This document shows positions 1 to 16,011 of a DNA stretch of 64,000 nucleotides, one piece after another. The number at the start of each line of letters is the position of its first letter. Within the stretch, counting starts at the first letter, position 1. The stretch covers positions 192,001-256,000 of the forward strand of contig JAOPTX010000007.1 in the NCBI GenBank assembly GCA_051532055.1. Direction: 5' to 3'. The position numbers and the translations under genes are program-made. The notes beneath the pieces are model-generated. The model made no database searches and had not been told where the DNA came from. It worked only from the letters and a program-made list of their open reading frames with translations. Source of the DNA: Fibrobacterales bacterium (GTDB lineage Bacteria > Fibrobacterota > Fibrobacteria > Fibrobacterales > JAOPTW01).

Positions 1-1456
1 ATCCAAGCTCCCATTCAAAACTTGTTTCAGATTTGAGAGTGTCATTAGCAAGGATGCCATTTTTTGTGCCATATCGCTCTTCAAGTGAAGCTATTCGATA
101 ATTTTTTCCTACAACGCCAAATAGAACCATAGTATTACTATTGTTAGAAAGCATAGTGTAATGCAATCCTCCGCTATAACCTAAATGCCAATCAAGCTCT
201 TCCTGTTTCAACTCTCGCTTATCCCACATCAAATCAGCGAGACATCGACCATGTACTTTGATTGATTCTATTGGGTAAAAGGTTATTTCTGTGCTATTCT
301 TCACTGCTTGTCTACTTGCCATAAAGGCCTGATCGATAGTATCTCCTATCAAATGTTGAGGCTTAAGCAACTCATGCTCGTACGCTAATTTATGATAGAG
401 CAACCACTGTTCACTCGGAAGTATTCTGAATGAGACAAACGGTTTCCATGAATAGCTTACACGCTGGGATTCAGTATCTTGATTAACATACAGCGGATAA
501 TCTTCTTTAAAAATAAAATGCTTAATGCTTCCAATACTATTTTTTGATCCTAAAACCATTTCAGGATAAGTACGTATATTCCAACGTTTTTTATACTGTC
601 CGAAGACACTTCCACTCATAGAAGATATTGTAGAGCGATTGGTCACTTTATACTCATTCCCCGAAAGCTCTTTCGAGTTGTAATCTGCCTCTACCTTTAT
701 AAACAGCTCCCCTTTCAACACCTTCCCCGTAATCACCTCTATGCCACTCGCTGAAGTATAACCATCGTTACTTTTTTGCATTACACTATCATCTGTCGTA
801 TTGTACGTAGTCCCATTTCGATTAAGAAACTTAAAATCATTATCACTATGAATTACACTTACGATACTTTGACTGTTAAACCCGACTCCAATTTTTTGGT
901 TATAGCTTACAGTATTATGAAATGTCTGAAAACTCCCTAAAGAGAGATCAGCTCGCACACTCTCCTTCATCTTCTTTTTTGAAATAAGGTTAATGACACC
1001 ACCAACTGAGCTCACTCCAAACTTAGCAGGTATAAAGCTTTTGTAAATTTCTATACGCTCATAAAGAGAGAGATCAATCTTTCCAAGGTCAACAGTACTC
1101 CCTGAGGCGCGGTTAATAGGAATATCATCAATACAAACCACTACTCGTGATCCACTCTGTCCTCGTATAGTAACACTTTGAACACCACCAACACCTCCAA
1201 ACTGCCTTGTTTGAATAGCGGTCTGCCGTGCAAGAATATTAGCTAGGTTGTTCTCTTTACCTAACCACTCTGCCTCGTTAATTATTACAGTAGACTGATT
1301 TTTGTAAAGAGTCGAGGCTGTAGGGAGCTTTTCAGATACTATGATGGTATCGCTCGGCAGAGCAAAGCCGCTCGTGCAAAGAGAAAACAACAGTATCACC
1401 ACATAAGTATATGTGTTCCACAAAAAAGAGTTGGAGTGCCAAACGCAAAAAGCCAT
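1..1456 (-). CDS. TonB-dependent receptor, probably a cobalamin (BtuB-like) transporter; truncated at the left window edge
   Basis: Absent from the ORF track. Manual translation of both ends in one frame from ATG 1456 gives a signal peptide, plug motifs (SVTIRGQSGSRVVVCIDDIPIN; ERIEIYKS...GGVINLIS) and a barrel motif near base 1 (YRIASLEERYG...LKSETS). Lies directly downstream of a cobalamin riboswitch. Confidence 0.88.
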   Translation of the reverse strand, partial: MAFCVWHSNSFLWNTYTYVVILLFSLCTSGFALPSDTIIVSEKLPTASTLYKNQSTVIINEAEWLGKENNLANILARQTAIQTRQFGGVGGVQSVTIRGQSGSRVVVCIDDIPINRASGSTVDLGKIDLSLYERIEIYKSFIPAKFGVSSVGGVINLISKKKMKESVRADLSLGSFQTFHNTVSYNQKIGVGFNSQSIVSVIHSDNDFKFLNRNGTTYNTTDDSVMQKSNDGYTSASGIEVITGKVLKGELFIKVEADYNSKELSGNEYKVTNRSTISSMSGSVFGQYKKRWNIRTYPEMVLGSKNSIGSIKHFIFKEDYPLYVNQDTESQRVSYSWKPFVSFRILPSEQWLLYHKLAYEHELLKPQHLIGDTIDQAFMASRQAVKNSTEITFYPIESIKVHGRCLADLMWDKRELKQEELDWHLGYSGGLHYTMLSNNSNTMVLFGVVGKNYRIASLEERYGTKNGILANDTLKSETSFEWELG

Positions 1457-1494
1457 ATCTCGTACTTTGACCCGAAGATCGAGATTAAAGGGTT

Positions 1495-1657
1495 GTATAT
1501 GGCAGGTCTTCTGACTTAAGCTTCATCCTACTCCCGATGCCTTCCCACACTATAGGTGTAGTGGCTTTAAGTATTCGGTTTCATCAGCTTTTACAGCGGC
1601 GGGACCGTTTGCGAGTTTCACGCAATTCCCTGTTAGGCCCTTCCGGGCACCATAATT
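1495..1657 (-). ncRNA. Cobalamin riboswitch
   Basis: Minus strand carries the hallmark elements in order: GGTGCC...AACAGGGAA...GTGAAA...CGGTCCCGCCGCTGTAA...GCCACT...GGGAAGG...AAGTCAGAAGACCTGCC; upstream of a TonB-dependent receptor. Confidence 0.95.
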
Positions 1658-2689: not shown

Positions 2690-3913
2690 ATGGGCGATAA
2701 GCCAACTATTCTCTACGTCGATGATGAACTAGAAAACATCACCGTTTTTAAAGCAACCTTCAAAAGGCATTATAAAATTATATCTGCCCTCTCTGGTAAT
2801 GAAGGCCTCAATAAGCTTAAAGAGAATGACGTCCAACTTATTATATCCGACCAAAAAATGCCCGAGATGACTGGTGTTGAGTTTTTCCAAACATCCATTA
2901 AGGACAATCCCGACACTCCCCGTATTTTGCTAACCGGCTATACCGATATTGAGTCGCTTATTGATGCCATCAATAAAGGGTACATCTTTCAATATGTATC
3001 AAAACCTTGGAAATTCGAAGACCTAAAAATGATTATTGATAGGGGCCTCGAGCAAGATGCATTAAAAAAGGAAAACAAATCACTCATTAACCGGTTAAGC
3101 AAACACAATGAAGAACTTGAACAGCTTGTAGAAGACCGTGTAGGCGATCTACGAAAATCATATCAAGAACTTATCATTGCCAAAGAAATTGCTGAAGAGT
3201 CGAACCAAGCAAAAAGTGTATTCCTTGCAAACATGTCTCATGAGCTGCGTACTCCATTGAGTGCCATTCTTGGATACAGCGAACTCATTACAGAGGATCT
3301 TGAGGATTCTGAAAATGAAATTGCCGACACAATAATTCCTGACTTAGAAAAAATTCATCTTTCAGCGGAACACCTTTTAACCATTATTAATGAGATCCTC
3401 GATTTTTCAAAAATTGAATCGGGTAAAATGGAAATCAATATTGCTGAAATAGAAATTAAAATTTTGATAGATGAGATAGTGAATAACGTGCAACCCCTTA
3501 TAGCTAAAAACAGTAATACATTATCTGTTGAGCTTGCAGCCGAACATACAACCCTCATCTCTGATTACCAAAAAGTAAAACAAAGTATTATCAATCTTTT
3601 AAGTAATGCAGCTAAATTTACCAAGCAAGGCACTATTACTCTGAAGGTTTCTCTCTTAGATCCTGGCATGCTTCGAATCAGTGTGACCGACACAGGTATT
3701 GGTATTAACGCCGACACTCTCGAATCAATCTTTACCCCCTTTACCCAAGCAAATGCCAACATTTCCACACAATATGGAGGCACAGGACTCGGCCTCAGCC
3801 TCACTCGCAAAATTTCAGAACTTCTTGGTGGTTCACTTACAGTAGAAAGTGTTGAGAATGAAGGATCGACATTTCACTTTACTATACCTCAACACGGGGT
3901 TATCCCAACATAA
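2690..3913 (+). CDS. Hybrid signalling protein: N-terminal receiver + HisKA + HATPase
   Basis: LYVDDE...ISDQKMP...LLTGY receiver; [34 protein letters not shown]. Confidence 0.93.
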
Positions 3914-3935: not shown

Positions 3936-4307
3936 TTACTCAATGCGATTTAATTGTTTTTCAATTTTCTCGAGTAGAGATTTTATTACTATAGGCTTAG
4001 TCTCAAAATCATCACACCCCGCATTCATCGCTTTTTGTCTATCTGACTCCTGAGCATAAGCAGTAAGAGCCACAATTGGGGTTTTCCCAACCTCATCATG
4101 CTCTCTAATAGTTTTTGTTGCTTCATAGCCATCGATTTCAGGGAGCCCCAAATCCATTAAGATAAGGTCAGGTTTTTCGGATATTGCTAAATCAATAGCT
4201 TCTCGGCCGTTAAATGCAGGAACAACATCAAAGCCTTGACGCGTAAGTCTGCGTTGAAGCATCTCACTATTGATTTTAACATCTTCGACTAATAGTATTT
4301 TAGCCAA
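3936..4307 (-). CDS. Single-domain response regulator (DivK/CheY-like)
   Basis: ILLVED, LILMDLGLP, ALTAYA, AGCDDFETKP; TTG start. Confidence 0.92.
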   Translation of the reverse strand: MAKILLVEDVKINSEMLQRRLTRQGFDVVPAFNGREAIDLAISEKPDLILMDLGLPEIDGYEATKTIREHDEVGKTPIVALTAYAQESDRQKAMNAGCDDFETKPIVIKSLLEKIEKQLNRIE

Positions 4308-4500: not shown

Positions 4501-4935
4501 ATGAAACCACTTTTATATAATTATGTGAAATGCCTTCTCTTAGTAGTATTACTCATTGGATCAGCTCACGGCTCAGATGATGATATAATTATCGTTGTTT
4601 CTATTAAAAGTGCCGTTGACTCAATATCCAAGTCTGAAATAAAAAAACTCTACATGGGTAAACAAGCAACCCTCGATACTCAATTTACTTCACCAACTAT
4701 TTTAAAAATAAAATCCACCCATAAAAAGTTCCTCGATACCTTTCTCAAAATTAACACCCGACAATTCGCCCGCATTTGGCAGAAGCTGGTATTTACTGGT
4801 AAAGCCCAAATGCCTAAGCAGTATACCTCTGAGCATGAACTCATCGAGATGCTCGAAAATAGCCCCAATAAAGTAGGATACATTCAGCGTAAAAACATTA
4901 CTGAGACCCTCAAAGAATTAGAGGTGACTCAATGA
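4501..4935 (+). CDS. Small secreted periplasmic-binding-protein-like (PstS-like single-lobe) protein, paralog 1
   Basis: Signal peptide; IIIVVS...ISKSEIKKLYMGK...W.KLVFTGKAQMP...VGYI pattern; paralog of 7654..8118. Start uncertain (ORF track 4486). Confidence 0.75.
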   Translation: MKPLLYNYVKCLLLVVLLIGSAHGSDDDIIIVVSIKSAVDSISKSEIKKLYMGKQATLDTQFTSPTILKIKSTHKKFLDTFLKINTRQFARIWQKLVFTGKAQMPKQYTSEHELIEMLENSPNKVGYIQRKNITETLKELEVTQ

Positions 4936-6263
4936 TCTATTTAACCTCACTTCTATTGATTCTATGGTGCGCAAGCTCCCTCTATGCTAAAGGACTCGCT
5001 ATCCACGGTAGCGTATCGCAAAGCTATGTACATTCAATAGATAATAATTTTGTATTCTCCGGAACCGAAGGCGGCTCTCTCAATTACTCAGAAGCGTACA
5101 TCAACTTTACCCAACAATATGATGAACAGCTCCGTTTTGGAATTCAACTTGCTGCTCGTAGTTTTGGAGACGAAGAAAACTTTGAACCAACGGTTGACTG
5201 GGCCTATGGTGATTACCGGCTGCATGAATTATTAGGCATTCAAGTAGGAAGTATAAAGGTCCCCTTTGGTATCTACAATGAAGTAAGAGATATCGACTTT
5301 GCCCGCCCCAACATTTTACTCGATCAAGGCATCTACCCCGAAAGCTTTAGAATGGCACTTGACTCGTATACAGGGGGTTCACTCTATGGCTCTCTTGAAC
5401 TCTCACACTCCATTTTTGATTATTGCCTCTACATGGGAGCCACAGACATTCCTGATACCTACACCAGTATTCAAACAGTAAAAACCCTTTATAACGCGCC
5501 CAACACAACAATCAGTGATGGCTATATGGGAGGCTCTCATTTAAAAATGCTCATCGGTGATCATCTCTCCCTGGGGCATACCTATCTGTTTCTTCAAGCA
5601 TACGATAATTTAGAGTCCGAAAACCTTGGGCGTAATTTCGATCAAATAGAATCAGTGAATTCCGAGGAAGCCACACTCATTCAAGCAACCCTCGACGGAC
5701 CCTTAAGCTACACACCTCACGCACATCGGTTTACCATGCAGGTAAACATTGCAAGCGTAGAGCTTCGTTTTGAAAAACTGACTCTTGCTGCAGAATATGA
5801 ATACTTTACCCTCAAAACCTTTGCTTCAGATGCACTCGTAGCAAAAGTAATTGGCATTGGCCAAGAGAGCCCATTTATACAATACAACCCAGCCAATTTA
5901 CCCCCAGAAACCATTGAAGTCATTCCCTATCAAGTTGCTTCGCTGTTAATCAACAATGATGTTGTTACCAAACAAGCAGGATATCTTCACCTCTTTTACC
6001 AATGGCATGACCGTTTTGGCACCCATGCTGGCGTTGGTTATGTAACTCAAGAGAACAACAACAGTAACAACCCCGATCAAAATTTTAGAAACAGCAAACA
6101 ATGGAGTTATGTTGCTGGTTTACACTTTTATATCAATGACAACTTTATGGTAAAAGGCGAGTACCACTATTTCGATGGTGACTACAGTTCTTATACCAAA
6201 CCAGGAAATAACCCACAATCAGATGGGCACCTCGTAATAGCGCGCGGGTCCTATCTATTTTAA
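4932..6263 (+). CDS. Porin-like outer-membrane beta-barrel, paralog 1
   Basis: Signal peptide; IHGSVSQ, DWAYGDY, G.IKVPFGIYNE.RD motifs; amphipathic strands; C-terminal ARGSYLF beta-signal. Confidence 0.8.
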   Translation: MIYLTSLLLILWCASSLYAKGLAIHGSVSQSYVHSIDNNFVFSGTEGGSLNYSEAYINFTQQYDEQLRFGIQLAARSFGDEENFEPTVDWAYGDYRLHELLGIQVGSIKVPFGIYNEVRDIDFARPNILLDQGIYPESFRMALDSYTGGSLYGSLELSHSIFDYCLYMGATDIPDTYTSIQTVKTLYNAPNTTISDGYMGGSHLKMLIGDHLSLGHTYLFLQAYDNLESENLGRNFDQIESVNSEEATLIQATLDGPLSYTPHAHRFTMQVNIASVELRFEKLTLAAEYEYFTLKTFASDALVAKVIGIGQESPFIQYNPANLPPETIEVIPYQVASLLINNDVVTKQAGYLHLFYQWHDRFGTHAGVGYVTQENNNSNNPDQNFRNSKQWSYVAGLHFYINDNFMVKGEYHYFDGDYSSYTKPGNNPQSDGHLVIARGSYLF

Positions 6264-6272
6264 GGAGATACT

Positions 6273-7646
6273 ATGAAGCATGGTGGGAAACTACTCTTAC
6301 TCCTTCTAACCACACTCTATATGTCAGGGTGGTCAGATGATGAGAGTATCGAAATACATGGTGCTATTTCTCAGAGTTTTATCTACTCTAAGAATAACCA
6401 CTACATCTTTCAAGGATCCAAAGGTGGGTCGCTTGACTTCTCTGAAGCTTATATTAACTTCTCAAGACAGTTTGGAAGTGATCTCCGAGTTGGACTTCAG
6501 ATTGCATCACGCAACTTTGGGACCCAAGAAGACTTTACCCCTAAACTCGACTGGGCCTATGGAGATTATCGTCTCCATAGAGCCATAGGGCTTAGGCTTG
6601 GCAAAGTTAAACTACCCTTTGGGATATATAATGAAGCGCGAGATATAGATTTTGCTAAAGCATCAATCATACTCGATCAAGGCATCTACCCCGAAAACTT
6701 TAGACTGGTCATTAATTCCTACTCGGGAGGGAGTCTCTATGGGACATTTACTATAAGTGAGAAAAATAATGCAGAGTTCGATTATGAAGTGTATTATGGT
6801 ACGACGAGTATCCCAGAAAGCTATCGAAGTATTCAATTCACCCGACGTAATTTCAATTCACCTACCACTGGCATGAATAATGTTACCCTTTGGGGGACCT
6901 CCGCTCAACTGCGCCCCTTCGACAACCTCCTTCTTGGGCACTCCTTCATGTACAACACTACCTATCTCAGTATCAACAGCTCTACTTTGAAAGACTTAGA
7001 CGAAAATGAGACTGGCTTTTTCGACTTCCCCGTTCCCTTTATAGAGAAAGCAGTTAAATCAAAATACACTGCCCATGTATTCAGTGCTGAAATACGTATA
7101 AAAGATTTTACCCTGATCAGTGAATATGAATCAAGCACCTTAAACTCAACTAATACCCAAGATTTTTCTAATGCCATATATAGCGGGATTTCTAAAAATT
7201 TTGAAAACACTGCATTTAGGGACGCAGTCCTTACAAGTCTCGGAATTCCTGTTGCAAGCCTAGACTCACTCACACTAGATCAAATGGCAGCTGGTGTGGC
7301 TCAAACATTTACCTCTGAATTCTCTACACCAATTGTTGCGGATAAATCATCATGGTACATACAAGCACTCTATCAATTGAATGATGACCTTGGGCTTTTC
7401 ACCGGGTATGGATATACCACCCAGACCAACAGTGCTGACATTAAACGGCTCCAAGAAGAACAAAACACCAGAAATGCGAAGCAAAAAGATTATTCGCTTG
7501 GTATAAACTACTATGTCAGTGATAACTTCTTGTTAAAAGGAGAGTATCACTATATTGATGGACTCTATGGCGTATATAACCCCTCGACTGATGTGATGAT
7601 TGAAGATGGTAACCTTTGGCTTGCTCGCGCATCCTATTCATTCTGA
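6273..7646 (+). CDS. Porin-like outer-membrane beta-barrel, paralog 2
   Basis: Same motifs as paralog 1; ends ARASYSF; AAGGAG RBS. Confidence 0.8.
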   Translation: MKHGGKLLLLLLTTLYMSGWSDDESIEIHGAISQSFIYSKNNHYIFQGSKGGSLDFSEAYINFSRQFGSDLRVGLQIASRNFGTQEDFTPKLDWAYGDYRLHRAIGLRLGKVKLPFGIYNEARDIDFAKASIILDQGIYPENFRLVINSYSGGSLYGTFTISEKNNAEFDYEVYYGTTSIPESYRSIQFTRRNFNSPTTGMNNVTLWGTSAQLRPFDNLLLGHSFMYNTTYLSINSSTLKDLDENETGFFDFPVPFIEKAVKSKYTAHVFSAEIRIKDFTLISEYESSTLNSTNTQDFSNAIYSGISKNFENTAFRDAVLTSLGIPVASLDSLTLDQMAAGVAQTFTSEFSTPIVADKSSWYIQALYQLNDDLGLFTGYGYTTQTNSADIKRLQEEQNTRNAKQKDYSLGINYYVSDNFLLKGEYHYIDGLYGVYNPSTDVMIEDGNLWLARASYSF

Positions 7647-7653
7647 GGTTATT

Positions 7654-8118
7654 ATGATACATTACTCCTCTATCATGCGAAAAAGGTCACTATTTCAAGC
7701 AGTATGCAGTCTACTATTAGTCTTGTTATTCTGTATTACTCCAACAGCCAGTTATGGTAATGACATCGTTATTGTTGTCTCTAAAAATAGTACTCTTACC
7801 AGTATTGAAGTGAGCGCTCTTAAGAAACTCTATATTGGAAAAAATACCACAATAGAGAATACCTTTACCTCACCAATTCTCCAGAAAAATAAAACGCAAC
7901 ATAAACAATTTTTAGAGAAATTTTTAAACATGAATACCCGACAATTTGCTCGAACATGGCAAAAGTTAGTATTTACAGGTAAAGCACAAATGCCTCAAAA
8001 GGCTGACTCATATCAAGAGCTCATTAAATACCTTACAGAAAACTCACAAAGTATTGGCTACATGCTTGAGAGTCACGTTACCCCTGAAGTTAAAATTATA
8101 CCCATAAAAGGAATGTAA
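7654..8118 (+). CDS. Small secreted periplasmic-binding-protein-like protein, paralog 2
   Basis: Shares NTRQFAR.WQKLVFTGKAQMP with paralog 1; start moved to ATG 7654 after GAGG. Confidence 0.75.
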   Translation: MIHYSSIMRKRSLFQAVCSLLLVLLFCITPTASYGNDIVIVVSKNSTLTSIEVSALKKLYIGKNTTIENTFTSPILQKNKTQHKQFLEKFLNMNTRQFARTWQKLVFTGKAQMPQKADSYQELIKYLTENSQSIGYMLESHVTPEVKIIPIKGM

Positions 8119-8119
8119 A

Positions 8120-9445
8120 TTGCGAACCCTTGTTCTCACCATACTTTTCTTAGCGAGCGTCTATGGGAACCCGCCCCCTGTTGATATCCATGGAACTATT
8201 TCTCAAACAGCTATCTACGCAGTAGATAATCACTATCTCTACAGTGGCACCAAGGATGGCTCATTTGATTTCACCGAAATCTACATCAACTTTAGTTCTC
8301 AATTATCTGATAGACTCCGCATGGGGATGCAACTCTCATCTAGGAACTTTGGAGAACTTGAAAATTTCGAACCCAAAATAGACTGGGCTTTTGGTGATTA
8401 TCGCCTTGTTCCCGAATTTGGCTTTAGAATTGGACAAGTGAAACTCCCTTTTGGCATCTATAATGAAAGTCGCGATGTTGACCTTGCAAAACAGACGATT
8501 GTCCTCGACCAGGGTGTCTATCCCGAAGACCTCAGATTACTCATCACCTCTGTTAGTGGTGGATCACTATATGGGATTGCAACCCTTGGAAATTTTGACT
8601 TCGACTACCAAGCTTATGGCGGTATCAGCAAAATAAATGAGACCTATTACTGGACCAATGTTTCAGCACATAATAACAATTCTCCTAATTCAAAAATTAA
8701 CAACATGAAACTCTATGGAGCGACAGGAAGTATCACCTATAATTCCCTCTACAAAGTTGGTGCATCATATACTCACAACTCAAATGATCTTACTCTAGAG
8801 AGTTCTGACATACTCGCAAACATTCCTGGTAAAGCCGGTATTGATTTACAACTTCAATCAATACTCCCTTTTGTTTTTCCTCTTGGACTCCCTGCGGTCC
8901 CTATGCCCTACATTAAAAATGGCTTGGAAAATGAACTAAACACCTACACCTTTTCAAGTGAAATCGCTCTCCATGACCGCCTCACCCTCGTAAGTGAATT
9001 TCAACTACTCACAATGAAATTCACCTATAGTAATGATGCACAGGACCTTATTTTAAAAGCATTTGAAGATGCGGGTATACAAGGTCAATTCCTTACGATG
9101 CCTATTGTTAATGGTGCATCACTTATTTCCCAATATACCACCCCCATTTCACCTCGTAATTACTCGCTGTACACCAATGCCCATCTACAATTGACCGAAA
9201 ACCTAGGTAGCTCTTTGGGATATGCGTATAGAATCCTGAAGCTAAATTCATCATTTGAATCCTATCGTAACACCGAGATGGACTATCTTATTGGACTCAA
9301 CTATTTTCTTACCGACAACATTCTCATTAAGGCTGAGTACCACTATATTGATGGAAACATAAGTGCCTACCCTCCTATTGGTACAGATGAAACTTCCAAA
9401 TCTAGAGGTCAGCTGATAATGGGCCGGATATCTTTTACCTTTTAA
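8120..9445 (+). CDS. Porin-like outer-membrane beta-barrel, paralog 3
   Basis: Same motifs (DWAFGDY, KLPFGIYNESRD, LDQGVYPE, KAEYHYIDG); ends GRISFTF; TTG start. Confidence 0.8.
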   Translation: MRTLVLTILFLASVYGNPPPVDIHGTISQTAIYAVDNHYLYSGTKDGSFDFTEIYINFSSQLSDRLRMGMQLSSRNFGELENFEPKIDWAFGDYRLVPEFGFRIGQVKLPFGIYNESRDVDLAKQTIVLDQGVYPEDLRLLITSVSGGSLYGIATLGNFDFDYQAYGGISKINETYYWTNVSAHNNNSPNSKINNMKLYGATGSITYNSLYKVGASYTHNSNDLTLESSDILANIPGKAGIDLQLQSILPFVFPLGLPAVPMPYIKNGLENELNTYTFSSEIALHDRLTLVSEFQLLTMKFTYSNDAQDLILKAFEDAGIQGQFLTMPIVNGASLISQYTTPISPRNYSLYTNAHLQLTENLGSSLGYAYRILKLNSSFESYRNTEMDYLIGLNYFLTDNILIKAEYHYIDGNISAYPPIGTDETSKSRGQLIMGRISFTF

Positions 9446-9448
9446 TAA

Positions 9449-9473
9449 ACTACTCACTACTCACTACTCACTA
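9449..9473 (+). repeat. Heptanucleotide tandem repeat (ACTACTC)x3 + ACTA
   Basis: Read directly in the porin-3/kinase intergenic spacer. Confidence 0.85.
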
Positions 9474-9488
9474 TAAACCGATGAAACT

Positions 9489-11105
9489 ATGACACTACGT
9501 ACCAAATTTTTACTCGTTCTTATTCCTCTACTGGTAGTTTCACTTTCAGCAGTAATATTTGCGATCTATGGCAGTACTAATATTAAGGTCAAAACTGGGT
9601 TTGTTAAAAATGACATCTTTCCCATACTTAATAGAGCGGGCGCTCTGAACGATCATGTTAAAGCCACTAAGTCTGGTTTTGTCGATGCAATAAATGGCGA
9701 TGAATTTTTTGCAGAACAAATAGCACAGACTCAAAGTGCCTTTAATATAGACATTGATACACTCTATAGTATCACTCAAGATTATGGCCTTAAAGAGATT
9801 AAAATCAATTACAATAATTTTGTCTCCATTGCTATCACTACTGGCACTAAACTCGTAGAAAACCCAGATGAGTTTTCTGATGACATTAGTATTATTACAG
9901 AAAAAGCACAGATTCTTAGTATTCAAATTGAATCATATTTACAATCTAAAGAAAAGCAATTTGGCATAGCTCTACTCTCTATTGATGCATCTTCTGAAGA
10001 CTTTGTAAATGCATTTGCCATCGTAGGTCTTTCACTTCTTATTGTGATGGTTATTCTCACGAGAATTATTCTCTCCTCCACCCGAACTATTCGTAACCTT
10101 GCAACTGACGCTGAAGGCCTCTCAAAGGGGGACCTCAAAAAAGAGATTGAAACCACTCGATCAGATGAGTTAGGTATTCTTCAAGGGAGCTTTGAACGCA
10201 TGCGCTCATCTCTTAATGGACTTATCAATAACCTGGAGTCAAAAGTTGAAGACCGGACTAAAGATCTAAACCGAAAAAACAAAGCACTCAATGATACTCT
10301 CAGCAAACTAAAACAAGCACAAACGCAACTTATCCAGTCAGAAAAAATGGTTTCCCTAGGACAACTTACGGCCGGTATTGCTCACGAAATTAACAATCCC
10401 ATTAATTTTGTTCTCAATGGTATAACTCCCCTTGAATCAAATATTGTAGACCTCTTTGATCTCATGAAACTCTATATACAGCATCATAAAGAACCATCTG
10501 AAGCTCTGACCGAAGAGATCGCAGAACTGAAAGATGACATTGAATACGATGATCTTGAACCAGAAATCTTACAGCTCTGTAACAGTATTAAAATTGGTGC
10601 AAAACGCACTTCGGAAATTGTTAATGGTCTGCGAACCTTCTCACGTACTGACGAATCTGAGAAAAAATTAGCTGACATACACGAAGGTATTGATTCAACT
10701 CTTGCTATTCTCAATCCGAAAATGAAAGGCCGAGTTGATGTTATAAAAGAGTATGGACCTGTTCCCTGTTTGGAATGTTTCCCTGGCCAACTGAATCAAG
10801 TGTTTATGAATATTCTTGCCAATGCTCATCAAGCTATTGGCGAAAACAAAGGAACCATCACTGTAGGAACAAAAAAGGTTGATGACACCCATATTGCAGT
10901 GACTATTACTGATTCAGGCCCCGGCATGACCGAAGAGACTAAAGAGAAGATTTTTGAACCGTTCTTCACAACGAAAGATGTAGGAGAGGGGACAGGCCTC
11001 GGAATGTCAATAACTTTTGGTATTATTCAGAAACACAAAGGATCAATTACTATAGATTCGGAAATTGGTGTTGGCACAACTTTCACCATAACCCTTCCTA
11101 TGTAA
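9489..11105 (+). CDS. Membrane sensor histidine kinase (TM - helical periplasmic domain - TM - HAMP - HisKA - HATPase)
   Basis: Two hydrophobic segments; [67 protein letters not shown]. Confidence 0.93.
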
Positions 11106-11107
11106 CT

Positions 11108-12607
11108 TCAATATATAAGTGGTAGACTAAAACAGATAGTTGTCCCTCTATCTGTCCCTTCACTCTTTGCCTCTATCGTACCCTTACATTCATGCGCTAT
11201 GTTTGCTGCATTATGAAGCCCAAAACCTGCACGCTCTTTTGTTGAGTACCCGAGTCCAAAAATAGTTGTCAGCTTTTCCTGATCAATACCAACCCCATTA
11301 TCAGACACACACGTATTTATTGATGCATCTATTACTTCAATATCAATCATGATTGACTTATCATGCGCTATCCCTTCAAGTGCTTCCATAGCGTTCACAA
11401 TTAGTGCGTTCATAATCACCGTAAAGCTACTCATATTGAGAGCAACAATACCATCACTTGAACTCTCAATTCGATACGCAATATCTCTTTGCTCTAACTC
11501 AAATACATGAATATCCAGGACACTCTCCACACACTCTCGCAGTGTGATATCCTCACGAATATAGCTACTTAATCTACTTCTATCCTGCTCTTCAATAACC
11601 CCTTTCATTGTTTTAAGAAGCGACATTATTTGCTGAGTACTGTGTTGTGCAACTTGTAGTTCATCTTGTAGAGAGTCGTCAAGTGAAAGATAATACTCTG
11701 CAAGAGTTTTACTTTTGGGATTATGGAGGATAAAATCCTCCAAATTACCAGCATGAGATTTTAAAAGCTCATTTGCCTGAAACAATTTTTGCAAAGAGTT
11801 ATTGTTCAATAGATCATCAAGAGATTCAGCCCGCACCAAAAGACTATTAAGTATGTTCCCTTGGTTGTGAAGTATTGAAGTTACCACCTCATTACGTCCT
11901 TTAAAGTGTGCTGCATCTACGAGTTTTTCCTGTGCTTCTTTAAGAGCTAAGGTCCTTTGTTTAACCTTCTCTTCAAGATCCTCATTGAGGACTTGAACCT
12001 TTAATTGCTCTTCAAGTGCCTTTTCAAGTGCCCTATTGAATAACTTATAAATAGCTGTAGCAACTAGATACAACAGTACAATAGACAGTATTCCATCCCC
12101 TAAAAATTCTGCTGCAGTCCTTTCATTTAAAAAACCTTTTGTAAAAGCGTTCTTTGTATAAAGAACCAATGCACCTATGTTCGCCAAATAAAATAGTATT
12201 GAAAATAGTGCAATTGGATTTACAAAAATTGAAAGGAAAAGAAACACTAGCACAAACTGAAATGAATCTGCAGAGCTTAATATATCTGTTCCAATATTAA
12301 GCTCCATAAATATAATCAACCAAGCTACCACATTTGGAATAATGACGAACATGTATGATGTTACTTTAAATTTTCCAATCCTCAGTAACCATTGCATGAT
12401 AAGTATTGCTACAATACCATAGATAAACGGGATAAATATAGAGAGATCAGGGCTATTAGATACAATGGAATAATAAATTACAATAAGCGGTGTAACAACA
12501 AACAGGCCCAAAGAAAAAATATTTATCAACCGCGCTAAATGCCGCGTCCGATAATCTGCCCCATCATACACCCGAGGCACGCCAAAGAGTCGTTTATTCC
12601 ATTTCAT
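11108..12607 (-). CDS. Multi-TM sensor histidine kinase
   Basis: Several N-terminal TM segments; SILHNQGNILNS H-box; NALIVNAMEA, DNGVGI, GFGLH. Confidence 0.88.
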   Translation of the reverse strand: MKWNKRLFGVPRVYDGADYRTRHLARLINIFSLGLFVVTPLIVIYYSIVSNSPDLSIFIPFIYGIVAILIMQWLLRIGKFKVTSYMFVIIPNVVAWLIIFMELNIGTDILSSADSFQFVLVFLFLSIFVNPIALFSILFYLANIGALVLYTKNAFTKGFLNERTAAEFLGDGILSIVLLYLVATAIYKLFNRALEKALEEQLKVQVLNEDLEEKVKQRTLALKEAQEKLVDAAHFKGRNEVVTSILHNQGNILNSLLVRAESLDDLLNNNSLQKLFQANELLKSHAGNLEDFILHNPKSKTLAEYYLSLDDSLQDELQVAQHSTQQIMSLLKTMKGVIEEQDRSRLSSYIREDITLRECVESVLDIHVFELEQRDIAYRIESSSDGIVALNMSSFTVIMNALIVNAMEALEGIAHDKSIMIDIEVIDASINTCVSDNGVGIDQEKLTTIFGLGYSTKERAGFGLHNAANIAHECKGTIEAKSEGTDRGTTICFSLPLIY

Positions 12608-12737: not shown

Positions 12738-12852
12738 AATACAAATTTCGACAAAGAGTAGGTAGATTCAAGGCGGAGCAACCGCAGGCGTACAAATGGT
12801 ACATCAAGAGAACTCCAACATCTAAGATGCCTGCTCTTTGCCGAAATGTATT
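12738..12852. repeat. Palindromic intergenic element, copy A
   Basis: Outer arms TTTCGACAAAGAGTAGG / CCTGCTCTTTGCCGAAA around an AGGCG...GCGTAC-AAATG-GTAC...AAC core. Confidence 0.7.
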
Positions 12853-13987
12853 AGAAGGCTTCGCGGATGTAGACCGTCAAGCTCAGACCTGATTTTTGTA
12901 CATACGAAATATCAGCCCGTACATTGAACTTATTTTGAGGGTTGAGCGCCACCCGCCCCCCAAGGCCAATTGAGTAGAGGGTCTCACCCATTTTAAAATC
13001 TGACTCTTGCCCCCACACCTGAAAGGCTTCGGCAAAGGTAACCATCCCCAGGCGCCACCAAAGTTCGCGTCGATATTCAGCTCCAACACTTATGAGATTA
13101 TTATCACGATAGCGCCCTGATTCAACGCCTCTCATCTCATACACACCATCAGGTGTGGCAAGGCTCCGAAACGGGATCGCATCTCCATAATTAACATGAT
13201 TATGTACCATTGTTGCAATTGCTCCCGAAGAACCAACAGGAAAATATTTAGACGCTTTAAATCGGTATTTAAAGAAATTGAATTCACTACCAAAATTTTT
13301 ATGGTACCCAAAGGTTTCTAGTTTGACATATTCACCTTCAGTAGCCCAATATTGATGATTTTTATTATCATACGTCATAATAAAACCAAAACCATTAGTA
13401 CGGGCACCATGGCCACCAACTGTTGTTGGGTTATCAAGAATGCTCCCACTCTCTTTGGGGGTAATATCTTCCTCTGTGAACTCCATAGTTACTCCAGCAT
13501 ATAAACCGGGAAAAAATTCTTTTTCAAGTAAAAACTGAACACCATAATTGGTTGCATCAAAAGCAGTGGAATCTTCTTTGCCACTCATCCCTATGCCATA
13601 ATAATTTGCAGGCCAGATGCTATAAAAGAAATATGTCTGCATGTGGTATGTTCCCCAATACATATCGGGCTTTGCAGAAACTTCCATCTGATTTTTTAGA
13701 GTGTAAAATGCAGCAGTCTCAACTGATGACGCATTATCATTCGGCTGTTCTGGTTTAAAAAAGTGTGCTGCAAAAACTCCTAACCGCCATGAGGTTTCTG
13801 TTGAAGAGACTATTATTGGGAGGAGTGCCCATTTTTGAAATTCCTCCTCACTCTTCTCAAGTACTGAGTCTTCTTCACTCTCTTGTAGATTTACTTCAAT
13901 AGTAACTCTAGTAGTATCATTTGTGGTTTGCGACCACCCCATTGAAATGAGACCCAGAATTACTCCGATACACCATTGATTCTTCAT
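12851..13987 (-). CDS. Omp85/BamA-family beta-barrel without POTRA domains
   Basis: Signal peptide; MRGVESGRYRD loop-6-type motif; AEYRRELWWRLG; ends YIREAF. Confidence 0.8.
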   Translation of the reverse strand: MKNQWCIGVILGLISMGWSQTTNDTTRVTIEVNLQESEEDSVLEKSEEEFQKWALLPIIVSSTETSWRLGVFAAHFFKPEQPNDNASSVETAAFYTLKNQMEVSAKPDMYWGTYHMQTYFFYSIWPANYYGIGMSGKEDSTAFDATNYGVQFLLEKEFFPGLYAGVTMEFTEEDITPKESGSILDNPTTVGGHGARTNGFGFIMTYDNKNHQYWATEGEYVKLETFGYHKNFGSEFNFFKYRFKASKYFPVGSSGAIATMVHNHVNYGDAIPFRSLATPDGVYEMRGVESGRYRDNNLISVGAEYRRELWWRLGMVTFAEAFQVWGQESDFKMGETLYSIGLGGRVALNPQNKFNVRADISYVQKSGLSLTVYIREAF

Positions 13988-13990
13988 CTC

Positions 13991-15010
13991 TTAATCCTCA
14001 GTCTCATCAGGAAATTGTTCACGTAATTTATACAAACAATCTTGGAGTGAAGAACGAATCTCACCCACAGTTTTTTTCATAACCATACTTGCTGTTTGTT
14101 CAGGTTCTTCATTGCGAAGTCCTTGACGTATTTTGCCATAGATCATATCATAGAGCTTATTGATCCGACTCTTCCAGTCACCGGTATAACTCCACTTCAC
14201 TTTCAGCAAATTCATATCTGACTTTTTCCATAATTTAACTGCTGTAGGAAAGGCAATATCAAGGATTGCCGAAATCAAAACAATATTTGGGTCATTAAAC
14301 CCATTCTTCCGTTCACCAGAGTTTATATAAAACTCACATTCATCGCGGGTAAAGTATTTTTCAAGTAGGCCAAGCGCTTCCGCAGTCTCTTCCACATCAC
14401 TTGAAAACACAGTAAAACCAGCGTCACAGTTACTATCCCAATCATTGGCAAAACGGGGTAACAATATACCCAGTTGTTGATGCATCAATTTAAAATGAGT
14501 AAACAAACAGAATCTTCCATCAACAAATCGATCGAGGGTAAAAAACAGTCCATCAAGTTTCACATGCATCGACGAAGGTAAATCCCTCCCATGTTCTTGT
14601 TCATGAGATTTTTGTAGAAAAGCAAGAGCTCCCTTCCAATCAAACTCAGTTCGATCATGTGCGAATGAAGGAGCGCCAATCTCTTCATTACAGATAACAC
14701 ATACTTGAGGTGCTTCTGATGAGATATCAACTGAAAATGAATGACCACACTTCCGGCAGACAATATAAAATGAGTCCATGTTCCTATTGAGAAGCTTTGC
14801 ATCATGCTCTAATCTGAGTGCCGAATTACCCAGTGTGCGATACGCATCATTTATCAAAAGCATTTTACTCGATGCAATTTGCTTAATCTCAACACCCAGT
14901 GTTGCAACTTTGTCAGGGTGATACTGTTTGCTTTTATTTCGATAAGCTGTATGTATCTCATCCTGAATAGCATCAGACGCTATTCCCAATAGTTTATAGT
15001 AATCTACCAT
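13991..15010 (-). CDS. J-domain (DnaJ-like) protein with a CxxC...CxxC zinc ribbon
   Basis: DYYKLLGI...YHPDK...INDAYRTL; CRKC and CVIC; start moved to MVDYY. Confidence 0.8.
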   Translation of the reverse strand: MVDYYKLLGIASDAIQDEIHTAYRNKSKQYHPDKVATLGVEIKQIASSKMLLINDAYRTLGNSALRLEHDAKLLNRNMDSFYIVCRKCGHSFSVDISSEAPQVCVICNEEIGAPSFAHDRTEFDWKGALAFLQKSHEQEHGRDLPSSMHVKLDGLFFTLDRFVDGRFCLFTHFKLMHQQLGILLPRFANDWDSNCDAGFTVFSSDVEETAEALGLLEKYFTRDECEFYINSGERKNGFNDPNIVLISAILDIAFPTAVKLWKKSDMNLLKVKWSYTGDWKSRINKLYDMIYGKIRQGLRNEEPEQTASMVMKKTVGEIRSSLQDCLYKLREQFPDETED

Positions 15011-15015
15011 AGTAC

Positions 15016-16011
15016 TCACGTATTTTTTACCACTCCATTTGCCAAGTATGCATTCCAAGTAGATTCTAAAAGAGTCTTCACATCACTACACTCTGCCTTC
15101 CAACCAAGAAGATCAAATGCTTTCTGAGACGAAGCATACAGATCTGCAGGGTCGCCCGCGCGCCTTCCCACAATATCATAAGCAATATCTCGGCCTGTAA
15201 TCTCTTTTGCGGTATTGATCATCTCAAGTACACTGACACCATTTCCAGTACCTAAATTTACCGTCAAACTTTTATTCTCTTTTTCAATATATTGAAGACT
15301 CATAACATGGGCACGAGCTAGGTCTGTTACATGGATATAATCACGAACACCAGTCCCATCAACCGTATCATAGTCATCACCAAATACCATTAATTTCTCA
15401 CGCATACCCGCTGCAGCCTCCATCACCACAGGGAGTAAATTTGCGGGTCCTTTTTCAAGACCACTACATTCACCGGTCACATCATATCCTGCGGCATTAA
15501 AATAGCGGAGTGCTGCAAACCTCACCCCTTTAAGTTCGTCATACCACTTCATGAAACGTTCAATTTCGAGTTTCGTAAAACCGTAATAATTCTCAGGATT
15601 AGTAGGATGATTTTCATCCATAGGGAGGTACTCAGGTGCACCATAAGTCGCTGCTGAAGATGAGAAAACAATCGCCTTAATACCACATTCAGAACAAGCA
15701 TTTAAAATATTGACTGAACCTGTAATATTATTCACTGAATATTTTTCCGGAGCCTCCATTGACTCACCAGCAGCTTTCAATGCTGCAAGATGTATCACTG
15801 CATCAATTTTTTTACTCTTCATTGTCTCAACGAGTGTATCATAATCAAGAATATCAGCTTCAACGAGAGTTGAGTCACGAAGAATATTTGACTTAAAACC
15901 CGATGATAAATTGTCGTATACTACAACGTTATATTCATTATCAAGAAGTTCTTTTGAAACATGTGAGCCAATATATCCTGCTCCGCCAATTACTAATACG
16001 TTTTTCATCAC
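15016..16011 (-). CDS. galE: UDP-glucose 4-epimerase
   Basis: GGAGYIGSH, FSSSAATYG, YGFTK, LRYFNAAG, DGTGVRDYIHV. Confidence 0.96.
   Translation of the reverse strand: MMKNVLVIGGAGYIGSHVSKELLDNEYNVVVYDNLSSGFKSNILRDSTLVEADILDYDTLVETMKSKKIDAVIHLAALKAAGESMEAPEKYSVNNITGSVNILNACSECGIKAIVFSSSAATYGAPEYLPMDENHPTNPENYYGFTKLEIERFMKWYDELKGVRFAALRYFNAAGYDVTGECSGLEKGPANLLPVVMEAAAGMREKLMVFGDDYDTVDGTGVRDYIHVTDLARAHVMSLQYIEKENKSLTVNLGTGNGVSVLEMINTAKEITGRDIAYDIVGRRAGDPADLYASSQKAFDLLGWKAECSDVKTLLESTWNAYLANGVVKNT

Follow-up and report, generated by a model that had tools for sequence, protein, structure and literature searches.

The 64,000-nucleotide stretch of DNA analysed here (the window; positions 192,001 to 256,000 of contig JAOPTX010000007.1, assembly GCA_051532055.1, from a Fibrobacterales bacterium) carries, between positions 4501 and 11105, a cassette of six genes for small periplasmic proteins, porin-fold barrels and an inner-membrane histidine kinase, all on the forward strand. 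The first gene encodes small periplasmic protein A1 (4501..4935; 144 amino acids, aa), which has a signal-peptide-like N-terminus and consists of a single PstS-type lobe II with a family-specific plug helix. It is followed by barrel B1 (4932..6263; 443 aa, with a C-terminal Phe), barrel B2 (6273..7646; 457 aa, 16 strands with a conserved loop 3, the predicted binder of A2), small periplasmic protein A2 (7654..8118; 154 aa, mature from about residue 34 to 154) and barrel B3 (8120..9445; 441 aa, TTG start). The last gene encodes the kinase (9489..11105; 538 aa), in which a helical periplasmic sensor between two transmembrane helices precedes HAMP, HisKA (His299) and HATPase_c domains. An ATGA overlap (-4 bp) joins A1 to B1, and the remaining junctions, in the order B1-B2-A2-B3-kinase, are gaps of 9, 7, 1 and 43 bp. 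The open reading frames thereby confirm the tightly packed, co-directional order of adaptor, barrel, barrel, adaptor, barrel and kinase described in an earlier note on this DNA. Its statement that no ABC (ATP-binding cassette) permease, ABC ATPase or TonB gene is present holds for 4501-11105 and for the flanking genes scanned with Pfam, while its estimate of about 130 aa for the mature small proteins is corrected to about 120 aa.

The guanine-plus-cytosine content of the cassette is like that of the remainder of the region, and its closest named relatives are found in a Fibrobacterales metagenome-assembled genome. A sister genome keeps the cassette at 71-92% identity, minus B3. Because both the 5' and the 3' remnants of B3 survive in the A2-kinase spacer there, the gene was deleted in that genome. 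This retention, together with a small-protein family of 2558 clusters at 50% identity that match A2, indicates that the cassette is not a chance arrangement. Promoter and terminator scans returned counts at shuffle level (18 versus 21.3 and 5 versus 4.6, respectively). Only one RNA run, from a marine metagenome, contains any part of the stretch, at a share of 0.06; its contigs are short, and none of those listed crosses a cassette junction. The B3-kinase spacer contains a 7-bp sequence, CTACTCA, three times (window 9449-9472), a repeat that the sister genome does not have.

The small proteins are not covered by any model in Pfam or NCBIfam. A1 and A2 are 47% identical overall, share the identical stretch WQKLVFTGKAQMP, and A1 matches the family profile with an E value of 8e-42. 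Half size is natural to the family, since 150 aligned members span 118-179 aa (median 142). The structure model of A2 (predicted local distance difference test score, pLDDT, of 92) superposes on a single PstS-type lobe (1twy 102-221; Z 14.2, root-mean-square deviation, rmsd, 2.1, 108 aligned) and also aligns to the lobe in 4gd5 (107-220), with homology to the PstS-type fold indicated by Foldseek (E 1e-6) and by profile matches to PstS (E 1e-11). Only lobe II aligns, and the second lobe and cleft of PstS are not present, which bears out the earlier description of these proteins as roughly half of a two-lobed binding protein. The phosphate motif of lobe II, R-x-x-G-S-G-T-R, occurs in 0 of 149 aligned family rows, and its position (REDGSGTR in 4q8r) is occupied in the family profile by the unconserved 'lkeesalh'. 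Thus, the RefSeq label of the relatives, 'phosphate ABC transporter substrate-binding protein', is not supported by the fold and motif results. The best-conserved stretch of the family is a helix, Q-x4-W-x4-F-T-G-K, that forms an insertion absent from PstS; Q97, W102, F107, G109 and P114 are each kept in 127-148 of the 149 rows. Lipobox-like motifs occur in 2 of 150 small proteins. YfiR is not among the best 50 fold matches of the A2 model, where PstS lobes and LysR-type domains are listed.

The three barrels share 32-41% identity with one another. B2 was modelled as a 16-stranded barrel (pLDDT 93) whose closest solved fold is OprP (Z 27.0, rmsd 2.8, 300 aligned, 16% identity), with general porins next. 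By sequence, the barrel profile finds no solved structure at E<0.001 and the barrels have no NCBIfam model; B2 exceeds the Porin_O_P cut-off (27.3 versus 20.9 bits) over residues 358-457 only, and B1 and B3 fall below it. By standard porin topology, residues 114-148 of B2 would form the in-folded loop 3 and the helical loop inserts would be extracellular. Identity among the paralogues is 69% in loop 3, 53-57% in strands 1-5 and 15-24% in loop 6. On a quick tree built from 68 rows of the 149-row barrel alignment, B1-B3 fall within one 11-row clade (Shimodaira-Hasegawa-like approximate likelihood ratio test, SH-aLRT, 100) amid mostly Desulfobacterota-type barrels, and the two other partnered barrels of the genome are placed in a separate clade. 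B3 has its own orthologue within this tree, so the triplication is old; a recent duplication is ruled out by this orthologue and by the 32-41% identity. A sixth, distant barrel-like gene (G000:C32:140983-142703) has no small partner and was excluded; it is followed by a gene for a 197-aa exported-looking protein.

Binding between A2 and B2 is supported by complex prediction. With residues 24-457 of B2 and 34-154 of A2 as input, each with a 149-row alignment, the predicted complex scored 0.84 (0.83-0.85), compared with 0.01 for the best control. The score mark applied is reached by 116 of 157 solved pairs and 2 of 215 mismatched pairs, counts that are only a rough guide for alignments of our own. 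At least 96% of contacts agreed between runs, with partner pLDDT of at least 87, and because no solved sequence relative of the barrel was found, a pass from a memorised structure is less likely. This result supports the contact between outer-membrane barrel and adaptor that the earlier note had put forward for structure prediction. In the model, A2 residues 92-113, the family-specific helix, are inserted in the periplasmic mouth of the barrel against loop 3. F107 of A2 is predicted to contact H29, A31, N62, Q76 and A128 of B2, and Q103 to contact loop 3 residues 125-128. Mutual information across 116-117 paired small-protein and barrel rows placed the top pairs near loop 3, but within-clade shuffles gave equally high values and the signal was rejected.

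The residues at this predicted interface are shared within the cassette. A1 is identical to A2 at 24 of 29 interface residues, compared with 34 of 92 elsewhere, and B1 and B3 match B2 at 24 and 21 of 41 interface residues, compared with about 135 of the 393 remaining positions. Four small genes, distributed over three loci, are present in the genome; in its two other cassettes, no more than 4-6 of 29 interface residues on the small protein and 5 of 41 on the barrel are shared. This pattern of sharing suggests that A1 and A2 could each serve all three barrels while being insulated from the other cassettes. One of these others has the order barrel, small protein and methyl-accepting chemotaxis protein (MCP) (L002; G000:C24:33730-37333); the second (L001; G000:C93:1-2698) has a barrel, a small protein and a membrane sensor and is ended by the contig edge. 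Both carry a different plug helix, W-x-x-Q-M-I-K-G-K-G, and their barrel interface residues differ as well.

The phylogenetic distribution of these genes and their neighbours shows that the module occurs well beyond this locus, as a widespread cassette whose outputs can be swapped; here it has undergone a three-barrel expansion. An adjacent co-directional barrel gene accompanies 124 of 133 small-gene copies in genome loci and the small gene in 76 of 80 metagenome loci; most loci carry a single small gene. At the 76 genome loci surveyed, kinase, MCP, GGDEF or EAL genes make up 57 of the 142 cassette-adjacent genes but 18 of 300 genes that lie at least three genes away. An adjacent receptor is present at 51 of these 76 loci, in 28 of 39 hand-labelled genus-level groups and at 45 of 80 metagenome loci. 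The neighbourhood survey called for in the earlier note gave the swappable outputs that it had asked about, in several phyla and beside a near-universal barrel. Among 160 random Gammaproteobacteria genomes, 45 (a count that includes G113, an unpublished genome) contain the small protein, and by hand tally 27 of the 44 fetched have a receptor gene beside at least one copy. In the Fibrobacterota the small protein occurs in 17 of 150 sampled genomes and in 0 of the 56 that represent the largest of the sampled families; of 20 fetched loci, 11 have an MCP or kinase gene next to the cassette. A metagenome scan with two proteins of the window found no relative. Homologues do not sit mostly beside transport permeases, the pattern that the earlier note had named as refuting its proposal: PstCAB was found neither in the window nor among the scanned neighbours, the scanned neighbours included no BPD_transp-type importer permease, and a crude motif screen detected, for 11 of 270 small open reading frames, an ABC-ATPase motif at a distance of at most 3.5 kb. 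The neighbours so flagged that were checked are exporters, UvrA, ABC-F proteins, three unassigned ATPases and one ABC-3 metal importer.

The sensor of the cassette kinase lies between transmembrane helices 8-26 and 172-190 and comprises about 145 aa (DNA 9567-10001). The periplasmic domains of adjacent receptors elsewhere measure about 150-165 aa, and 41 of them, that of the cassette kinase included, are linked in a single family that covers kinases and MCPs of several phyla, with 10 others outside it; a GGDEF protein has a sensor of this family as well. The family has no sensor model in Pfam, and none of the 41 members matches 4HB_MCP_1, TarH, CHASE3 or HBM at E<=0.01. The domain resembles four-helix bundles, its Atlas position being near the 4HB_MCP_1, CHASE3 and TarH clusters at 0.92-0.93, and the only solved matches of the sensor profile at E<0.001 are designed helical proteins. 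The family motif is roughly P-x20-A-V-x-x-G-D, which reads IFP...AINGDE in the cassette kinase; its conserved Gly may mark a docking site for a helix tip rather than a ligand pocket. A match between the kinase sensor and a profile containing it was circular and was discounted. In the random Gammaproteobacteria the sensor family was detected in 12 of 160 genomes (E<=1e-6), and all 12 contain the small protein, within about 3 kb in 10 of them (Fisher p 7e-8, an overstated value as kin are not independent). This threshold was adopted because a match at E 6e-5 was FlgK; at E<=1e-4, 14 of 15 sensor-family genomes have the small protein, with one match a false positive. In addition, 25 of 36 chosen genomes, mostly without an adjacent receptor, hold the sensor family, usually as one copy.

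The gene order, the folds, the loss of the phosphate site, the co-occurrence with receptors and the predicted plug-in-pore complex are results of sequence analysis and computation. The interpretation that we favour, with somewhat more than even confidence, is porin-plug-receptor signalling across the envelope, following a logic similar to that of YfiBNR with unrelated parts, in which the pore-plus-plug pair probably relays outside signals inward. Each 16-stranded porin would carry the small protein on its periplasmic side, with the extra helix docked in the pore against loop 3. An outside ligand acting at the variable loops and loop 3 would alter, displace or free the plug, which would then contact the kinase at its four-helix periplasmic domain and thereby change the phosphorylation of nearby receivers. 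Two such receivers are encoded just upstream of the cassette: a divergent single-domain receiver (3936..4307, reverse strand; 123 aa), a candidate phospho-acceptor of the kinase that is 95% identical and equally placed in the sister genome, and a receiver-histidine kinase hybrid (2690..3913, forward strand; 407 aa), a candidate downstream relay. Hybrids similar to the latter flank the kinase-type cassettes L042, L059 and L203, the similarity of 32% being generic. Judged by their usual dimensions, the plug and a four-helix sensor would together not reach across a periplasm of typical width, which favours shuttling of the plug rather than a permanent bridge. With their different outer loops and shared plug face, the three barrels could feed different outside cues, probably not phosphate, into one kinase, and elsewhere the same front end may drive chemoreceptors, GGDEF/EAL proteins or sigma-54 systems. 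The earlier proposal is partly supported: gene neighbourhoods in several phyla favour signalling rather than uptake, and the shared interface residues of the three barrels fit the proposed convergence of several receptors on one pathway, whereas the adaptor-to-kinase step, the shuttling and the co-transcription of the genes are putative.

Several observations weigh against this interpretation. The operon contains no response regulator, and the assignment of the cassette kinase to the sensor family is weak, as its match to the family reaches 11 bits (yet ranks first of 137 receptors) and hhalign gives 15% for its sensor alone (first of 28) and 72% together with two relatives. In the random sample many more genomes contain the small protein (45 of 160) than the sensor family (12 of 160), and 11 of the 36 chosen genomes, six Oxalobacteraceae and five others, do not have the sensor family. 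The 76 genome loci were picked by the motif WxKxxFTGK and are rich in Pseudoalteromonas; 25 of them have no adjacent receptor, and in many Pseudoalteromonas the MCP gene is convergent and therefore not co-transcribed with the cassette. In some other cassettes the sensor is of the dCache type, which shows that the front end is not bound to a single kind of sensor. Finally, fusions of the small domain to lytic transglycosylases in three genomes represent a non-signalling use.

Receptors of the dCache_1 or dCache_3 type stand beside the small gene at L140, L141, L147, L154, L160, L163 and L168, some of them with sigma-54 activators. In the transglycosylase fusions (L131:3979-6378, L132:3962-6550 and L134:3877-5535) the small domain is N-terminal to the SLT domain, with LysM in two; the linker is either long and Lys/Ala-rich or shorter, and in L131 and L132 a barrel gene lies directly ahead. 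These proteins may be cell-wall enzymes tethered to a porin. At L133:3984-5723 a DnaJ-domain protein carries a C-terminal small domain and adjoins a barrel gene.

The fusions by long linkers to SLT and LysM enzymes would also be expected if the small protein were a permanent porin accessory (a gate, an assembly aid or a periplasmic tether) and the receptor itself sensed a solute passed by the pore, without contact with the small protein. The strong predicted interface and the near-universal adjacency of the barrel also agree with such a role, and, given these cell-wall enzymes and the third of loci without an adjacent receptor, it keeps an appreciable, if rather low, probability. It accounts poorly for a distinct sensor family of kinases, MCPs and a GGDEF protein found only together with the small protein in the random sample, for the single sensor-family receptor that most genomes with a stand-alone pair hold elsewhere, and for a conserved sensor Gly that may be a dock for a helix tip rather than part of a ligand pocket.

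Classical binding-protein sensing, which we regard as less probable again, would make the porin a mere channel and have the half-lobes, perhaps as A1/A2 or homo-dimers, bind the ligand and activate the kinase in the style of GltB-GtrS. Kinases and chemoreceptors of this type are well known, according to the available text of two reports (PMC8050422, PMC7927077), the fold is indeed that of a class II binding-protein lobe, and this locus has two small copies. Against this stand the single lobe, the PstS ligand motif missing in 149 of 149 rows, the burial by the model of the most conserved surface, the inserted helix, in the porin, and the predominance of loci with one small gene. The reading implied by the RefSeq names, uptake of phosphate or another oxyanion by an OprP-like porin and a PstS-like protein, is very improbable. 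OprP is the closest solved barrel, the last 100 residues of B2 pass Porin_O_P, and the relatives carry the phosphate label, but lobe I and the R-x-x-G-S-G-T motif are both absent, the scanned neighbours include no PstCAB or BPD_transp gene, and the few nearby ABC-ATPase motifs belong mostly to UvrA, ABC-F proteins or exporters.

Outer-membrane proteins send signals across the envelope in the Rcs system (RcsF-IgaA) and in TonB-dependent cell-surface signalling (FecA-FecR); the cassette differs from these in having no lipoprotein sensor, TonB plug or box, signalling domain or anti-sigma factor. The signalling that we favour is most similar in logic to YfiBNR of Pseudomonas aeruginosa where, as far as the available text describes it, a signalling enzyme of the inner membrane is under the control of a small periplasmic protein that is in turn retained by an outer-membrane protein (PMC4655355). 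Both combine an outer-membrane component, a small periplasmic mediator and an inner-membrane receptor, and binding of the mediator to the outer-membrane component is predicted here by the complex model. In YfiBNR, according to the same text, YfiB is a lipoprotein and YfiN, which acts as a diguanylate cyclase, has a PAS domain in the periplasm (PMC4655355), whereas the cassette has an integral 16-stranded porin, a PstS-type half-lobe as mediator and a helical sensor on interchangeable outputs, here a HAMP-HisKA-HATPase kinase. The earlier note had likewise perceived a likeness in logic with different parts.

Binding-protein-dependent receptors, exemplified in the available text of the respective reports by GltB-GtrS with OprB (PMC7927077) and PstS-CtpL (PMC4926252, PMC8050422), likewise tie a periplasmic binding-protein fold to kinases, chemoreceptors or GGDEF/EAL proteins, and their clusters may include a porin gene. 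As described there, they employ complete two-lobed ligand-binding proteins that often serve an ABC transporter, in contrast to the single lobe, missing ligand motif, missing transporter and predicted direct porin contact of the cassette; PMC8050422 uses neither 'porin' nor 'outer membrane' in its main text. The cassette belongs neither to these receptors nor to YfiBNR. OprP and OprO (PDB 2o4v, 4rjw) are 16-stranded barrels like B2 and include its best structural match, but the identity is 16%, and B2 has long helical outer-loop inserts and a predicted periplasmic plug partner. The CarRS-OmpV-VirK operon of Vibrio cholerae encodes a barrel, a possible periplasmic mediator and a kinase, and barrel-to-kinase signalling has been proposed for it (PMC12012098); judging from the available text of that report, its barrel and mediator belong to other families, the role of the mediator is a hypothesis only, and its distribution is narrow. 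Two further reports (PMC10734462, PMC11493405) deal, in their available text, with other porins. A description of the module was not found in the literature searched, which consisted of main texts with few subscription papers; supplements may list such genes with a phosphate-related name. The module itself is real and widespread, is apparently undescribed, and would be a variant of trans-envelope signalling. The present analysis contributes a controlled model of the barrel-plug complex, a sensor family that depends on its partner, the fusion proteins and the expansion to three barrels, one of which the sister genome has lost.

A more specific and more tentative version of the signalling interpretation is that such cassettes are energy-independent outer-membrane receptors, in which porins are gated from the periplasm by a half-binding-protein plug and a ligand at loop 3 ejects the plug, which then docks on a four-helix sensor that is dedicated to it and belongs to a kinase, chemoreceptor or cyclase. 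If so, bacteria could detect cues that fail to build up in the periplasm, perhaps polymers or surfaces; the barrels would be interchangeable inputs and the plug a reusable tether, for example for lytic transglycosylases. The sensing of large polymers by marine bacteria has been called surprising in the available text of one report (PMC10700628), for which the module is a candidate answer, although this link is speculative. More generally, a relay of this kind would provide a porin-based route for trans-envelope signalling and partners for an unnamed family of chemoreceptor and kinase sensors, and the predicted interface offers direct mutational tests in culturable marine bacteria. The mislabelling of the small proteins as phosphate-uptake components in databases would mislead readings of transcriptomes and of the phosphorus cycle.

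Some further observations concern related loci and the genes around the cassette. Independent multi-copy arrays of barrel and small genes occur in Gammaproteobacteria (L144, L063, L072, L081 and L143), where a single genome can contain as many as 8 small genes. A megaplasmid of Pseudomonas aeruginosa carries an MCP-porin-small cassette (L288, NZ_CP093017.1) upstream of a gene annotated as 3-(methylthio)propionyl-CoA ligase, and three P. aeruginosa plasmid records match it. About 3 kb upstream of the cassette described here and beyond three unrelated genes, a TonB-dependent receptor, a lipoprotein-like gene and an ABC set (window 1-1522 and G000:C7:185363-193522) lie near cobalamin-type genes, names that come from the translations, and we take them to serve cobalamin uptake. 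Directly after the cassette, a convergent multi-transmembrane histidine kinase with an atypical H-box, LHNQGN, is encoded on the reverse strand (window 11108-12607) and is missing from this place in the sister genome. Further downstream, also on the reverse strand (window 12851-15058), are an Omp85-family barrel and a J-domain-like protein with a CxxC pair, the latter read from the translation.

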